A DNA stretch of 63,166 nt from Thermoproteota archaeon (GCA_013154235.1 JAADCV010000100.1:1-63166), one strand, 5' to 3'; counted from the first letter of the stretch, positions 7,609 through 62,433 are shown. Numbers and translations are program-made. Notes: generated by a model from the sequence alone, not told the origin.

Positions 7609-8490
7609 CTAGGTCTGCTGACGCGCTCTTATGTACTCCCTACCCCTATACTTAACTATGGTTAGGGACCCCCTCTCTAAGTACCTTCGCAGAACCTCCA
7701 TAGCCTTATCCCCATGTTCGCGCTTGAGAAGCGATAGTGCTAGGTCTAGGGGTACTGGGTGCAGCTTCGCTATCTCTAAGAGGCTTTCTATAGTGCTAGC
7801 TCTAGCGAGAACCTCGTCTATCTCCGCCAGAGGTAGCAAGATAACTCGGTGCTTCCCGAGGTACATCGATAGCCTCTCCGCGAAGATCCTCAGTCTATCG
7901 ACTCTAGGCACCCTAACCCACTTCTCGGCTGGAGGCCTAATCGGGGCGTTGATGTACACTACGTATGGCTCCACCTTTCTGAGGGCCTCAGCTAGAAGAT
8001 CAGCATGCCAAGAACCATCGTTTACACCATCGACTAGCACCGTCTCTATAGATAGGATGCCGCTAATCTCCTTGGATAGCTCTTCGAGGCCGCTGATAAT
8101 GGCGCTGATCCTTATAGCGTTATCAGGTCTGTTGACTCTGCGAAAGACGCTTGGCGTAGCAGCGTCGAGCTTCATGGAAACGAAGTCGAATACCGTAGAG
8201 TCCTCCCTAACATCGCGTCTCCACACCAGCGAGGCATTGGATATTAGCGCTACCCGATACCCAAACTCTCTCGAGACTAGAGTAGCCGCCTTACCTAGAA
8301 GGCTGTAGAGGGTGGGCTCACCGTCACCTACAAACGTTAGGTAGTCTACCCTATCAACATTCTCTAGAGCCCGCTCAACAACTCTAGCAACTTCCTCTGG
8401 CTCGCAGTACCTACGCCTAAGTATGCTAGTCCTAATGGTTCTACCTAGCTGACAGTATATGCACGAGTAGCTGCAGGTCTTCATAGGCAC
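7609..8490 (-). CDS. Radical SAM protein (COG0731-like); true N-terminus probably lies upstream of the called start
   Basis: CSYSCIYC (CxxxCxxC) at residues 6-13 of the called ORF. The conserved YGPVLSRRLGFSLGI segment is encoded in frame upstream (to 8562) without a canonical start. Confidence 0.8.
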   Translation of the reverse strand: MPMKTCSYSCIYCQLGRTIRTSILRRRYCEPEEVARVVERALENVDRVDYLTFVGDGEPTLYSLLGKAATLVSREFGYRVALISNASLVWRRDVREDSTVFDFVSMKLDAATPSVFRRVNRPDNAIRISAIISGLEELSKEISGILSIETVLVDGVNDGSWHADLLAEALRKVEPYVVYINAPIRPPAEKWVRVPRVDRLRIFAERLSMYLGKHRVILLPLAEIDEVLARASTIESLLEIAKLHPVPLDLALSLLKREHGDKAMEVLRRYLERGSLTIVKYRGREYIRARQQT

Positions 8491-8816
8491 AACGCTTATA
8501 CCGAGAGAGAAGCCTAGGCGCCTTGATAAAACGGGTCCGTAAGCCCTAGGTATATGTGCCGTGGTTTCACCTTGCGCTAGAGAGCTAGGGATGCAGAAAA
8601 AGGTTTAGCGCTTGACATCTACTAGACACCGTTGAGCGCGGGAATCATGCCTCATCACGCACCAGATAGTTCGCTCTCACAAAGTATCGAGGGGAACTCA
8701 GCGGATCCCCGCACCATCTCAATGCTTGCTGCTACGAGCAGCAGTGCCTTACTATGTAGAACAAGGTGCTGGTCGCATATACCCAAGCGGTTCCTCGAGA
8801 CCGCGGGCTACAGCTT

Positions 8817-25000: not shown

Positions 25001-26554
25001 CTACTTCTTAACTAGCTCAAAGCCCACCTTCCTCCTAGAGAATGGGTACGTCACGATACCGTACCACACCGCTGCGCTCTCAAAAAGCCCTGCTAGAGGC
25101 GCTAGTATCAATGCTGCTAGCCTTATCGAGTTCTTGACCTTGGCTGGGATAGGAAGGTGCCACGTATTTATCTTGCATCCCTCCCAGTACATGTAGAGCC
25201 ACACCGCCATCAACAGCCCTAGGAACGGCGTCATAGCTATCGTTGGCAGCGGGGTTGGCATAACGAGGTTCAGTATGCTTATAACAGCCGCTGGAAGACC
25301 ACCGAGCCAAAGCAAGTAGTTTAGCCCAACAAGAAACTTGTTCTTCGCATCTATGTCTCGATGCCTGAGGATATCTATTATGCCCCAGACCCATCGGCGA
25401 CGCTGCTTAAAGAAGTCGACTACGCTAAACGGGCTCTGCTCATAGAGCTTACCCCTCAGCCATCCCCAGACCCTACCTACTCTAGAGGAACTCATTAGTC
25501 CGAAGATGAGGTCCTCTGCCATAACGGGGCCGAAGTCCCATCCAACCTTATCCTCTAGATCCGTCCTTATCAGCATGTGCGAGCCGTGAACAGCGAATAG
25601 GGGTCTGCCGTACTCGTACTGGAATCTCATCAGCGTAACGTCTTGAAGAGGTCTAACGCTATCGAATATGCTTGGAAGAACGCTCTTACCCCAGAAGTTG
25701 CTGTACACAACAAGTCCCTGAGCAGCCATCTTTCCATGTTCTTGGGCCCCCTCTATGAACTCGACGATGCTGAGTATCGTATCCTCTCCAACCACACTCT
25801 CCTCATCCATTAAGTAAACCCACGTCCTATCGTTTACGTAGCCTAGCCTCCTTCTAACATCAAGTGCGTAGCACAGCGCTCTCGCCTTGAACAGCGTTCC
25901 CTTAGGGGTTCGGTAACTCCTAGGTACGTAGATTACCCTTAGCTTATCTCCGAGGCTCCTCTTCAGCTCCTCGAAGAAGAGCTTAGAGCTCTTAGGCGCA
26001 TCCTCCTCCGTAACAACCCATATCTCGAAATTCTTAAGGTATTGCGGGGCCCAGTGCATAACCGATAGAACTCCCCTTCTAACTGCATCGACCTCTACGC
26101 CCCTAGTCACTATCTGGAATATGACCTTGTACTGCTTTCGTTGCTTAACTCTCTGCAGCCCGAAATCCTTCGAGGGATCAAATCTGTATATCGAGTACAC
26201 TATTATCAGAGAGATCGGTAGGTAGAACAGCCAGACGTACTTGAGGTACTGCAGCCATGAGGGTGCGCTAGCGCTGTACGGCACTGGATTCAGTATTGCT
26301 CCACCTATCGTAGCTGCCGAGCATGCAACGATGAACAGCGTGAACTCTAGCTTAGAGTAGTTAAGTCTCTTATGAACGTCGAGGACATAGTTGCGCCAGA
26401 ACTCCCCCTCGAACGCCTCGAGTATCCTCCTTAGTATCTCCTTAGCTCTCCGTATCATCATCAATGACTCAATTTCGAAAACCTTATATATTAAGCTTAA
26501 ACCCTTAGCCCGCTCTATCTGTATAGATGCGGAGATGAGGAGTCTTACGGCCAC
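25001..26554 (-). CDS. Membrane-embedded family-2 glycosyltransferase with QxxRW motif (cellulose/chitin-synthase-like)
   Basis: YLMDEES.., MAEDLIFG, FFKQRRRWVWG motifs plus N- and C-terminal TM segments. Start (GTG 26554 or ATG about 26460) uncertain. Confidence 0.75.
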   Translation of the reverse strand: MAVRLLISASIQIERAKGLSLIYKVFEIESLMMIRRAKEILRRILEAFEGEFWRNYVLDVHKRLNYSKLEFTLFIVACSAATIGGAILNPVPYSASAPSWLQYLKYVWLFYLPISLIIVYSIYRFDPSKDFGLQRVKQRKQYKVIFQIVTRGVEVDAVRRGVLSVMHWAPQYLKNFEIWVVTEEDAPKSSKLFFEELKRSLGDKLRVIYVPRSYRTPKGTLFKARALCYALDVRRRLGYVNDRTWVYLMDEESVVGEDTILSIVEFIEGAQEHGKMAAQGLVVYSNFWGKSVLPSIFDSVRPLQDVTLMRFQYEYGRPLFAVHGSHMLIRTDLEDKVGWDFGPVMAEDLIFGLMSSSRVGRVWGWLRGKLYEQSPFSVVDFFKQRRRWVWGIIDILRHRDIDAKNKFLVGLNYLLWLGGLPAAVISILNLVMPTPLPTIAMTPFLGLLMAVWLYMYWEGCKINTWHLPIPAKVKNSIRLAALILAPLAGLFESAAVWYGIVTYPFSRRKVGFELVKK

Positions 26555-26670
26555 TGAAACGATGATGAACGCTAACTACACCGATCCACGTATCACAAGC
26601 TTACAAAACTATCTAGGGAACCTCATTTTTAAGTAGCTTGCTACGTGTTCTAGCTTCTTAGGTGTCTTAG

Positions 26671-43901: not shown

Positions 43902-44002
43902 TGAAGTAAATCACGTGCCCAGCTGCAGCCATTAGACGAACGTCCATTATCTAAAGCCGCTCAGCATATCAACCTATCCTTGCAACCCCTAATCCGAGGT
44001 GA

Positions 44003-45391
44003 ATGGATACGGCAAGCGTAGTGAGCAAGATACGTGGATCAGAGGTTGAGTGGATAGACCTGCACTTCACCGATCTTGCCGGGTACCTTAGGCACGTAAC
44101 TATTCATGCATCGCTCGTAACTGAGGATGCCATTAAGAGAGGGCTGGGAAAGCTCGATGGAAGTAGCGTGAAGGGGTTTAGCGATATACACGAGAGCGAC
44201 CTTGTACTAAGACCTCTTGAAGAGACCTTCGCGTTAATTCCCTGGAGCAAAGGGCTTGCCAGATTCATATGTGCTGTTCACTCACCCGATGGATCCAGAT
44301 TCCCTAGAGACCCTCGGTGGATAGCAGAGAGAGCTGAGCAGTATCTCGCTGAGCAAGGACTTAGAGCTCTCGTAGCAGCAGAGCTCGAGTTCTTCATATT
44401 CGACTCAGTAAAGGTCTCTATCCAGCCGACAAAGCAGTGCTACGAGATAGTATCTAGTGAGATCGAGGGAACTAACTTCTTCAACAGGGTTAAGGAAGGA
44501 TACTACGTGCCTACGCCACACGATAAGTACCTAGATCTAAGGATGGAGATCTGCGACCACCTAAGGAAGTACTTTGGCATACCCACAACAGTCGCTCATC
44601 ACGAGGTCGCCGCCGCTGGCCAAGCAGAGATAAATTACGAGGCTGACTCGCCAGCGCGCTCAGCTGATGCAGTTCAAACAATAAAGTTCGTTGTAAAGAA
44701 CGTTTCGTGGAAGCACGGGCTCACCGCAACATTCATGCCGAAACCCATTGCCGGAGACAATGGGAGCGGAATGCACGTCCACGTATCAATCTGGAGAGGC
44801 TCTGAGAACCTCTTCTACGATCCTAGCGATGAGTACGCCGAGCTAAGCCAATTCGCTAGATACTTCATAGGGGGACTCATAGAGCATGGCAGAGCGCTAT
44901 CAGCTATCGTTAGCCCTACGATAAACAGCTATAGAAGACTCATACCCGGGTACGAAGCACCGGTTTACCTCGTTTGGAGCCGCGCTAACAGGAGCGCAGC
45001 TATAAGAGTGCCCTACTACTTCAAGCGGGACGAACCCTCCAAGAAAAGAATTGAGTTTAGGCCTCCGGACCCCAGCGCTAACCCCTACCTAGCGTTTGCA
45101 GCTATAATCATGGCTGGAATGGACGGCGTTAAGAAAGCCATAGACCCTGGAAGCCCCATTGATGAGAACGTGTATAGACTAGATGATAGCGTTAGGAAAG
45201 CTATGGGCATAAGGACTGTTCCTAGATCACTTGAAGAAGCCCTAGACGAGCTTGAAAGCGATAACGAGTGGCTCAAGCCGGTGTTCCCCAGGGAGGTCAT
45301 AGAGACCTACATAGAGATGAAAAGACTCGAGTGCAAGAGATTTGCACAGGCGGTGAGCCCAATAGAGCTCTTCATGTACCTAGACGTGTAG
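44003..45391 (+). CDS. glnA: Glutamine synthetase type I
   Basis: 462 aa; ..KPIAGDNGSGMHVHVS.., ..NSYRRL.PGYEAP.., ..RIEFR.PD.SANPYLA motifs. Confidence 0.92.
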   Translation: MDTASVVSKIRGSEVEWIDLHFTDLAGYLRHVTIHASLVTEDAIKRGLGKLDGSSVKGFSDIHESDLVLRPLEETFALIPWSKGLARFICAVHSPDGSRFPRDPRWIAERAEQYLAEQGLRALVAAELEFFIFDSVKVSIQPTKQCYEIVSSEIEGTNFFNRVKEGYYVPTPHDKYLDLRMEICDHLRKYFGIPTTVAHHEVAAAGQAEINYEADSPARSADAVQTIKFVVKNVSWKHGLTATFMPKPIAGDNGSGMHVHVSIWRGSENLFYDPSDEYAELSQFARYFIGGLIEHGRALSAIVSPTINSYRRLIPGYEAPVYLVWSRANRSAAIRVPYYFKRDEPSKKRIEFRPPDPSANPYLAFAAIIMAGMDGVKKAIDPGSPIDENVYRLDDSVRKAMGIRTVPRSLEEALDELESDNEWLKPVFPREVIETYIEMKRLECKRFAQAVSPIELFMYLDV

Positions 45392-46298: not shown

Positions 46299-46305
46299 TT
46301 TATAT
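46299..46305 (+). promoter_or_regulatory. TATA-like box TTTATAT upstream of the TFS paralogue
   Basis: About 50 nt upstream of ACG 46354. Predicts a transcript that includes GGTGA (46343-46347). Confidence 0.35.
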
Positions 46306-46380
46306 CCGTGCATAGCTCTAGCTATTTCGAGGAGCCGCGGTAGGTGATGAGCCACGTTCTTCTGTCCGAAGTGCGGTTCA

Positions 46381-46683
46381 GTGATGAGGAGCGTAAAGGG
46401 GAAGCTCGTATGCCCACGCTGCGGGTTTACACGTGATGCAAGCCCTAAGGACCTGGCGTCGATGAGAAAGGTGATCGTGTTCGAGCGAAGAATAGAGGCT
46501 AAGATAATCACCGTAGGCTTACCTCCAGGAGCGATACTTAGAAGCGATGTAACGTGCCCACGCTGCGGGCACAAAGGCGTGTATTACTGGCGTAGACAGC
46601 GCAGCAGTGCAGAAAGCTCGGATCTTATAGAAAGGGTCTGGAAGTGTCCCTCCTGCGGCCATGAATGGGTCGAAATAGAGTAG
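46381..46683 (+). CDS. TFS/TFIIS-type zinc-ribbon protein, second paralogue (N-terminal Zn ribbon extends upstream of the called start)
   Basis: C-terminal CPRCGH..VYYW...Q....KCPSCGHEW ribbon. In-frame upstream codons 46354-46380 encode TFFCPKCGS, the first CxxC of the N-terminal ribbon. Confidence 0.75.
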   Translation: MMRSVKGKLVCPRCGFTRDASPKDLASMRKVIVFERRIEAKIITVGLPPGAILRSDVTCPRCGHKGVYYWRRQRSSAESSDLIERVWKCPSCGHEWVEIE

Positions 46684-59967: not shown

Positions 59968-60300
59968 ATGCGGTTCTGCCCTAAGTGCGGATCAATAATG
60001 GTTGTGGATAGAAGCAAAGGCGTACTGAGATGCCCTAGGTGCGGCTACACTATGGATAGCAAGGGTGGGCTGGTGCTGTCAAAGTCTATAACCCACAGCG
60101 TTAAGGAGAAGACCGTTGTAGTGGATGCATCAACTGCGAGCGTGCCTCCGGGAGCCGTGCTGCTGAAGGGGGAGGTGCGCTGCCCTAAGTGTGGTCACGA
60201 TGAGGTGTATGCGTGGCAGATGCAGACCAGGGCTGCCGACGAGCCTCCGACAACGTTCTACAAGTGTGCCAAGTGCGGTCATACGTGGAGGGAGTACTGA
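59968..60300 (+). CDS. tfs: Transcription elongation/cleavage factor TFS
   Basis: MRFCPKCGSIM....LRCPRCG N-ribbon. C-ribbon CPKCGHDEVYAWQMQTRAADEPPTTFYKCAKCGHTW with intact acidic DE tip. Confidence 0.9.
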   Translation: MRFCPKCGSIMVVDRSKGVLRCPRCGYTMDSKGGLVLSKSITHSVKEKTVVVDASTASVPPGAVLLKGEVRCPKCGHDEVYAWQMQTRAADEPPTTFYKCAKCGHTWREY

Positions 60301-61723: not shown

Positions 61724-61761
61724 AATATCATCACTTCTCAGAGCCGGTGGAGGCTCATCAC
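61711..61761 (-). ncRNA. C/D box sRNA candidate 8
   Basis: Minus strand: C GUGAUGA (61761-61755), 13-nt guide, D' CUGA (61741-61738), 3-nt spacer, C' GUGAUGA (61734-61728), 13-nt guide, D CUGA (61714-61711). The 3' half overlaps ATG 61723-61721 of the Nip7-like ORF. Confidence 0.65.
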
Positions 61762-62433
61762 CTTTGTAGGCCTGCCGCAGCGCTGTATCTAGGGTACAGC
61801 TTGCTAGACGCCTTAATCACTGATCTAGATGGCACTCTGGCTAGGCTCCCTATAGACTGGGAGAGGTTCTATAGCTTGATGAGAGAAGAGCTCGGCAAGG
61901 AGATGAAGTTTCTCGAGTTCCTATCGAGGTTCCATGCAACACCCATCTTCTGGCGCCTGCATAAGGCGCTGGAGCTTCTAGAGCTCGAGGCGTGTGAGAA
62001 TATGGAGGTTTACAGCGATGCTAAAGCATTTCTCGAAGAGGCTCAGGGCCTAGCCGAGCGGCTAGTTATAGTAACTATGCAAAGCGCCTCAGCCTGCCTT
62101 AGAGCTTTGGAGAAGCTAGGCCTTGAAGATAGGGTCTGCATGTGTGTATCGAGAGAGGTTGCTCCCACAAGGCTAAAACAGCTCGCTTACGTAATTCATA
62201 GCCTAGGTCTAGATCCTAGAAAAACCCTTTTCGTAGGTGATAAGGTTATAGACGGCTTTGCCGCTTCATACAACGGGCTGAGTACTGTAGTGGTTCTTCG
62301 GAACCCGCGATGTAGAGCAGTGAGCGATACCGATGATATAATTGAGGATCTGCTAAGCGCTGGGGTAGTCGTAGTCGAATCCCTTGAGCAGGCTATCCCC
62401 ATAGTTAAAAGACTTGCACAGCGGACTATCTAA
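61747..62433 (+). CDS. HAD-superfamily hydrolase
   Basis: ALITDLDGTL (DxDG motif I), ..VTMQS.., ..FVGDKVIDG. The true start may be TTG 61801, which puts DLDGT at residues 7-11. Confidence 0.7.
   Translation: MEAHHLCRPAAALYLGYSLLDALITDLDGTLARLPIDWERFYSLMREELGKEMKFLEFLSRFHATPIFWRLHKALELLELEACENMEVYSDAKAFLEEAQGLAERLVIVTMQSASACLRALEKLGLEDRVCMCVSREVAPTRLKQLAYVIHSLGLDPRKTLFVGDKVIDGFAASYNGLSTVVVLRNPRCRAVSDTDDIIEDLLSAGVVVVESLEQAIPIVKRLAQRTI

Follow-up and report, generated by a model that had tools for sequence, protein, structure and literature searches.

We analysed a window of 63,166 nucleotides from a Thermoproteota archaeon (GCA_013154235.1, JAADCV010000100.1:1-63166), the window being the whole stretch of DNA, and focused on a paralogue of TFS encoded on its forward strand. 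The ORF listing begins this gene at GTG 46381, and the public protein P0001 (99 aa) begins at ATG 46384; both starts, which stand side by side as an internal Val-Met pair (GTG ATG, 46381-46386), cut off the first CxxC of the N-terminal zinc ribbon. The codons at 46354-46380 read T-F-F-C-P-K-C-G-S in frame with the called ORF and contain this first CxxC (CPKC, 46363-46374). Read from ACG 46354, the full-length ORF spans 46354-46683 (+) with 109 codons plus a stop, a span consistent with the translation, the TFS_arch score and the AF2 model. It continues with the second CxxC of the N-terminal ribbon (CPRC, 46411-46422), the third CxxC, which begins the C-terminal ribbon in the translation and the family alignment (CPRC, 46555-46566), and the fourth CxxC (CPSC, 46645-46656). 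Between the last two lies a SAESSD tip (46606-46623), which in the alignments is invariant in the family and takes the place of the canonical SADE(P) catalytic loop. For all eight cysteines to be present, the ORF must start no later than 46363. The 100-aa product initiated at GTG had no exact match in a look-up, because the databases carry the 99-aa ATG form.

Direct reading of positions 46340-46389 gave GTAGGTGATGAGCCACGTTCTTCTGTCCGAAGTGCGGTTCAGTGATGAGG. In the frame of the TFS paralogue the codons are AGG TGA TGA GCC, then ACG TTC TTC TGT CCG AAG TGC GGT TCA and finally GTG ATG, which translate as R, two stops and A-T-F-F-C-P-K-C-G-S-V-M. The tandem in-frame stops TGA TGA (46345-46350) stand directly upstream, so that no upstream in-frame start is possible for the TFS paralogue of the window. 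No ATG, GTG or TTG occurs in this frame between the stops and 46381, and ACG 46354 is the sole near-cognate codon from the stops to the first cysteine. The first stop overlaps a Shine-Dalgarno (SD) sequence, AGGTGAT (46342-46348, +), which is a full, 7-nt match to the anti-SD complement GAGGTGATC and ends 5 nt before ACG 46354; counted from GGTGA (46343-46347), 6 nt precede the ACG (46354-46356), the proposed translation start codon. An ATG also lies within the SD (46347-46349). It is out of frame, the frame of the TFS paralogue being +1 relative to it, and we do not take it as the start, its frame relation being inconsistent among lineages. All coordinates that an earlier note on this DNA had given for the site (46299-46386) agreed with the sequence as read.

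A TATA-like box, TTTATAT (46299-46305, +), precedes the SD and is a putative archaeal promoter of the TFS-paralogue transcript. The (A)GTTTATAT box is kept 55-65 nt upstream of the ACG in six lineages, among which the stretch between box and SD varies in length and content. From the position of this box we infer a leadered mRNA, whose leader of roughly 25-35 nt would contain the SD. Folding of 46326-46400 revealed no leader structure stabler than that of shuffled sequence (z = -0.30).

The 12-mer AGGTGATGAGCC, which matches the SD region of the TFS paralogue exactly, recurs on the reverse strand at 61752-61763. Here it stands 29 nt before ATG 61723, which belongs to a 201-codon ORF, and the triplets after it are TCC ACC GGC, not ACG. 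The chance expectation for such repeats of this 12-mer in 63 kb is about 0.008.

The ACG codon of the TFS paralogue across lineages

Loci of the TFS paralogue were drawn from genome and metagenome collections and from exact protein look-ups. The species of the window was represented by three independent assemblies (L009-L011), and the sequence of the site was identical in JGI contig Ga0072504_101417 (137 kb), to which the window belongs, a Logan run and NCBI MAG GCA_054002435.1. A sister species at 72% protein identity (L001-L008/L017), for which Logan, NCBI and ENA together supplied eight assemblies, shared the arrangement. The segment TAGGTGATGAGCCACGTTCTTCTG was identical between the two species and is followed in the sister by FFCPRCGSVM; the changes from window to sister were mostly synonymous (TGT to TGC, CCG to CCA, GGT to GGA, TCA to TCT, GTG to GTA). 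The earlier note had allowed for a 1-nt indel after ATG 46347, and its arithmetic was verified: deleting A46350 does give MATFFCPKCG. However, the same layout was found in the three assemblies of the window species, in the eight of the sister species and in several further species from JGI, ENA, NCBI and Logan data. We therefore give virtually no credence to a sequencing or assembly error, whether indel or substitution, that destroyed a normal ATG start.

The family occurs in Desulfurococcales and Ignisphaera, carries the hallmark GVYYWRRxxSSAESSDxIEK and was not found in Sulfolobales. The earlier note had placed the ACG, behind GGTGA, where the initiator Met of a TFS is expected, and the alignment bore this out: ACG stands in the initiator-Met column, with canonical SD spacing, in at least nine lineages related to the window, down to about 44% protein identity. 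Besides the window, these are L016/L029 (84% identity), L001-L008/L017 (72%), L030 and L045 (61%), L018/L031 (58%), L012, L013, L014/L015 and L044; the lineages are phylogenetically related, and their counts are not fully independent. In 13 Ignisphaera-type loci the same column is filled by ATG, as in ATG TTC TTC TGC versus ACG TTC TTC TGT. A rough neighbour-joining tree united seven ACG lineages in one clade and placed L014 elsewhere.

Every ACG lineage carried AGGTGAT or a GGGGAT/GAGGTG variant 6-7 nt before the ACG, and the ATG-bearing relatives carried GGTGA(T) 5-7 nt before their ATG. An in-frame TGA was present one to two codons 5' of the ACG in five lineages, as TGA TGA directly upstream in the window, L016, L001 and L030/L045 and as a single TGA in L018. 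In L012, L013 and L044 an in-frame TTG or GTG lies 6-11 codons upstream of the ACG and could, as the sequence reads, be an alternative start there. Among related lineages without ATG in this column, the ACG was invariant, with strain L004 as the sole exception. In the window, ACG accounts for 1.1% of all codons and for 28% of those for Thr, and its constancy despite this low share among Thr codons suggests that the triplet is constrained at the nucleotide level.

Pairwise comparison of the FCPxCGS codons across eight lineages yielded 103 synonymous versus 22 non-synonymous differences. The Pro, Gly and Ser codons each occur in 3-5 variants among these lineages; in the encoded protein, the residues Cys, Pro, Cys and Gly do not vary even in lineages at only about 44% identity. 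The ratio indicates that translation in this frame covers the segment 5' of the called start, and that these upstream ribbon codons are under purifying selection. It speaks against decay of the gene, which the earlier note had offered as another alternative, and, together with a TFS_arch match that begins at profile position 2, it upholds the claim that a complete N-terminal ribbon is encoded. The possibility that orthologues genuinely lack the first CxxC did not hold either, FCPxCGS being encoded upstream across lineages.

A functional short form starting at ATG 46384 or GTG 46381, with FFCPKCGS as an untranslated relic of a decaying gene, is what the gene callers put out (P0001, P0002, P0007, P0022, P0023), and it is in line with an internal Met that is present in many members of the family. 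It is at odds with the purifying selection and the invariant residues upstream, and its start codons are themselves replaced in relatives. The internal Met has given way to Leu (CTA) in L030/L045 and L018, and because it is absent, the called proteins of these lineages start only at the second CxxC (P0009) or 35 residues further downstream (P0014). GTG 46381 corresponds to GTA in the 72% sister species, so that it is not conserved as a start. Furthermore, a ribbon left with only two of the four Zn ligands would fail to fold, and the glutamine synthetase described below poses the same problem, with a product 64 residues shorter and without a domain. The short form also gains something from strain L004 of the sister species, in which CCG replaces the ACG (2971-2973) in an otherwise intact gene. 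This CCG could be genuine variation, could mark a strain that has lost the full-length form, or could stem from faulty assembly; if real, strain L004 cannot use this start. On balance we regard the short form as very unlikely.

If translation began at ATG 46347 within the SD and shifted by +1 before the first Cys codon, the change in L004 (His replaced by Pro in the frame of this ATG) would do no harm. Such a shift would be in the manner of prfB, in which programmed +1 frameshifting is stimulated by an internal SD. As in prfB, a conserved frame is preceded by an SD-like element and an out-of-frame ATG; the identity of the intervening segment in the two species fits such a shift, and by our own reasoning CUU-C could in principle let tRNA-Leu re-pair on UUC. 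Unlike in prfB, the frame offset is not conserved. The ATG lies 7 nt before the ACG in the window, L016, L001, L030 and L018, where a shift of +1 would be needed; in L012 and L014 the distance is 8 nt, and the shift would have to be -1 or +2. This difference in distance argues against frameshifting. In addition, the SD-embedded ATG is absent in L013, no slippery site is conserved across lineages, and the ATG overlaps the SD (spacing -1), which would make it unusable by an SD-bound subunit. Nor is there such an ATG at the SD and ACG of two genes described below, the radical SAM gene and, in the L016 species, glutamine synthetase. Frameshifting thus appears highly improbable, and initiation at the ACG itself remains the preferred reading.

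Other routes were tried and rejected. For termination-reinitiation at an upstream ORF, the out-of-frame ORF from the ATG ends in ATGA on the internal Met in L012 and L014. This overlap does not occur in the window or in its close relatives, and we read it as a by-product of Met followed by a codon starting with A. TGA as a sense codon with an upstream start was ruled out, since the canonical TFS itself ends in TGA and the region upstream of the SD is conserved neither in sequence nor in length.

The metagenome of the window also contains a second related species (L045; JGI 3300005095, contig Ga0072504_101500) at about 61% identity, with the layout TGA TGA ACT ACG TTC TTC and without the internal Met, in which gene calling yields a 75-aa fragment of the paralogue. 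For the L016 species, the gene calls leave a gap at the TFS paralogue, between a cation-efflux gene and the next ORF (L047 3626-3970; L048 3338-3680).

SD-led ACG codons at other genes

We compared SD geometry across the 63-kb window. Of the GGTG-led 5'-proximal starts of long ORFs, 19 use ATG, GTG or TTG; their modal spacing is 6, and 12 of the 19 share the spacing of the TFS paralogue. Two GGTG-led 5'-proximal sites in the window are without an adjacent canonical codon, and both have ACG (46354 and 8562). ACG at spacing 6 was observed in the TFS paralogue of the window and in 6/6 matches in related loci. The pattern exceeds chance in the window, and two further genes show the same layout, in agreement with the view of the earlier note that a second case makes coincidence less comfortable. 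Under looser SD definitions, no SD-ACG genes were found in the window beyond the three reported.

The first of the further genes encodes a radical SAM protein on the reverse strand, and the earlier note had listed it as a second case at 8562-8560. The arrangement of SD and ACG was confirmed there, whereas the spacing of 6 nt was not: the SD AGGTGA (8567-8572, -) is followed after 4 nt by the ACG (8560-8562, -), giving AGGTGA-N4-ACG. From this proposed start the ORF extends over 7609-8562 (-) with 317 codons plus a stop, and the database call P0026 (291 aa) is 26 residues shorter. The frame is open from 8604 and contains no ATG, GTG or TTG before GTG 8490, its first canonical start, upstream of which lies a conserved, family-typical YGPVLSRRLGFSLGI segment. 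The nearest relatives P0027, P0029 and P0030 are likewise called short. An SD and then ACG at the aligned position were found in three of four lineages. In L026/L027 the layout is GGTG-N8-ACG (GGTGT and 7 further nt), and in L046 it is GAGGGTG-N7-ACG. L028 (about 60-146), which comes from the same MAG as L017 of the sister species, has ACA CTG in place of the ACG and no canonical start after an in-frame TAG; CTG or ATC may be the start in this sequence.

The second is glutamine synthetase. In the window its start region (43996-44011, +) reads GAGGTGA ATG GAT ACG, with the ATG at spacing 0 and the ACG at spacing 6. In the L016 sister species (L016 660-680, L047, L048) the sequence is TAG AGG TGA TCG TAT ACG AGC, that is, GAGGTGA-N6-ACG with an in-frame stop upstream and without an ATG, and no canonical start was found for more than 60 codons past the ACG. 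L048, a Logan assembly from a different run, repeats this start sequence. The database call for the L016 species, P0147 (396 aa), falls 64 residues short and does not include the Gln-synt_N domain. The SD-ACG layout thus seems common to three unrelated genes, for glutamine synthetase clearly so only in the L016 sister species.

Elsewhere in the window, an ORF of 524 codons at 25001-26575 (-) has GGTG followed by TAG TTA GCG TTC ATC ATC (26550-26590), and its first canonical start is a GTG 7 codons in, 24 nt from the SD.

The protein read from the ACG codon

Read from ACG 46354, the gene probably specifies a 109-residue TFS paralogue with both ribbons complete. This protein scored 71.7 bits against TIGR01384 TFS_arch (cut-off 64.75), with residues 4-109 covering profile positions 2-100 of 101. 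The AF2 model contains both ribbons (mean pLDDT 76), the Pfam match is to the TFIIS C-terminal ribbon, and PDB profile and fold searches matched RPA12, RPB9, RPC10, TFS4 and TFIIS, the fold search returning 7oqy_Y for TFS4. The catalytic Asp-Glu of canonical TFS is absent from the alignment of the paralogue: the SAESSD tip has Glu-Ser in the canonical Asp-Glu columns and is invariant in 23 family members. The canonical TFS of the window (59968-60297) has an AADEP tip, and the C-terminal hairpin of the paralogue is two residues longer than in that protein.

TFS4 of Sulfolobales is an RNA polymerase inhibitor paralogue of TFS (PMC5715097, PMC8448823), and its C-terminal hairpin is shortened and carries KKK (PMC5715097). 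The SAESSD family resembles TFS4 in that it is a lineage-specific paralogue of TFS, has both Cys4 ribbons and differs from canonical TFS in the tip of its C-terminal ribbon. Unlike TFS4, it has a hairpin longer by two residues, not a shortened one with KKK, and it is distributed in Desulfurococcales and Ignisphaera; against the TFS4 model NF047723 the paralogue reached 33.5 bits, with a cut-off of 120. The family is neither TFS1-like nor TFS4-like. By analogy, the paralogue probably enters the RNAP secondary channel, with cleavage stimulation altered or absent. The analogy with TFS4 also leads us to speculate that a weak ACG start may keep a potentially harmful RNAP-binding TFS paralogue at a low level.

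Proposed initiation at ACG and its likeness to known systems

We consider it likely, from the sequences compared here, that translation of the TFS paralogue starts at ACG 46354 and is anchored by the SD. In the proposed mechanism, a leadered transcript would arise from the conserved TATA-like box about 55 nt upstream of the ACG, and AGGUGAU in the mRNA would pair with the 3' end of the 16S rRNA. This pairing would set the ACG, 6 nt downstream, in the P site, where the initiator Met-tRNA would read it despite the mismatch at the middle position. The first residue would probably be Met, by analogy with E. coli, in which ACG initiates at 0.1-1% of the level of AUG and yields an N-terminal Met (bioRxiv 10.1101/063800). 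The same device would start the radical SAM gene here and the glutamine synthetase of the L016 sister species, and this recurrence suggests that ACG is apparently tolerated as a fourth start codon in this clade of uncultured Desulfurococcales. A point against it is that the 0.1-1% efficiency of ACG in E. coli is ill-suited to a housekeeping glutamine synthetase, unless start selection is relaxed.

It seems unlikely that a dedicated mechanism, be it C-to-U editing or an altered initiation machinery (for example a variant initiator tRNA or aIF1) that would take ACG with an efficiency sufficient even for a housekeeping gene such as glutamine synthetase, makes ACG a proper start in this clade; if it did, this would be a lineage-specific change to the start-codon set of Archaea. 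For the gene itself, C-to-U editing of ACG to AUG in the mRNA, or a dedicated initiator-like tRNA, would leave DNA data like those expected of direct initiation at ACG, and a strictly conserved ACG at an aligned Met start resembles the edited starts of plant organelles. ACG-to-AUG start editing in plant chloroplasts and mitochondria needs PPR-DYW factors. As in those organelles, a conserved genomic ACG stands exactly where homologues have ATG; unlike there, no PPR-DYW-type system was seen here. We know of no mRNA C-to-U editing system in archaea, and for this reason we rate editing or a special tRNA as quite unlikely. No archaeal editing system was found in the literature searched, and neither the window nor the related loci yielded a tRNA or a candidate gene for editing: scans of window 1-63166 gave no tRNA genes and no Rfam families above gathering score, and Rfam and tRNA scans of the related loci gave no matches. 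Direct near-cognate initiation is simpler and has a precedent (bioRxiv 10.1101/063800).

Should ACG indeed serve as a start in this Desulfurococcales clade, standard gene callers would be shortening or missing genes there systematically, as exemplified by a half-liganded zinc ribbon, a radical SAM protein short of 26 residues and a glutamine synthetase that lacks its N-terminal domain. A start of this kind would further imply relaxed or SD-compensated start selection in a hyperthermophile with eukaryote-like initiation factors. No report of an archaeal ACG start was found in the literature searched, among which these would be the first conserved natural ACG starts for Archaea. In ribosome profiling of Haloferax, about 30% of the putative alternative initiation sites were near-cognate, but these were set aside (PMC7261190).

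ACG lies outside the start set accepted by the ORF and gene-calling tools that we used. Bacterial and archaeal non-AUG starts under translation table 11 are GUG and UUG and, rarely, AUU, AUA, AUC and CUG; to our knowledge, ACG is not listed there. Like these starts, the ACG codons described here are SD-led and one base off AUG; unlike them, they would be read with a mismatch at the middle base. They also differ from the E. coli ACG reporter in being conserved at natural gene starts and not a leaky signal. In eukaryotes and viruses, initiation at ACG is known, with AAV VP2 and Sendai virus C' as near-cognate examples. As in those cases, the ACG is genomic and is presumably read by the initiator Met-tRNA with a second-position mismatch, and the archaeal factors aIF1, aIF1A and aIF2 are homologues of eukaryotic initiation factors. 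In contrast to them, the host is an archaeon, an SD 6 nt upstream apparently selects the codon in place of scanning and a Kozak context, and the arrangement is found at three or more genes of the clade. What appears to be new here, judged from the genomes compared, is the conserved, SD-led use of ACG as the start of natural genes in an archaeal clade.
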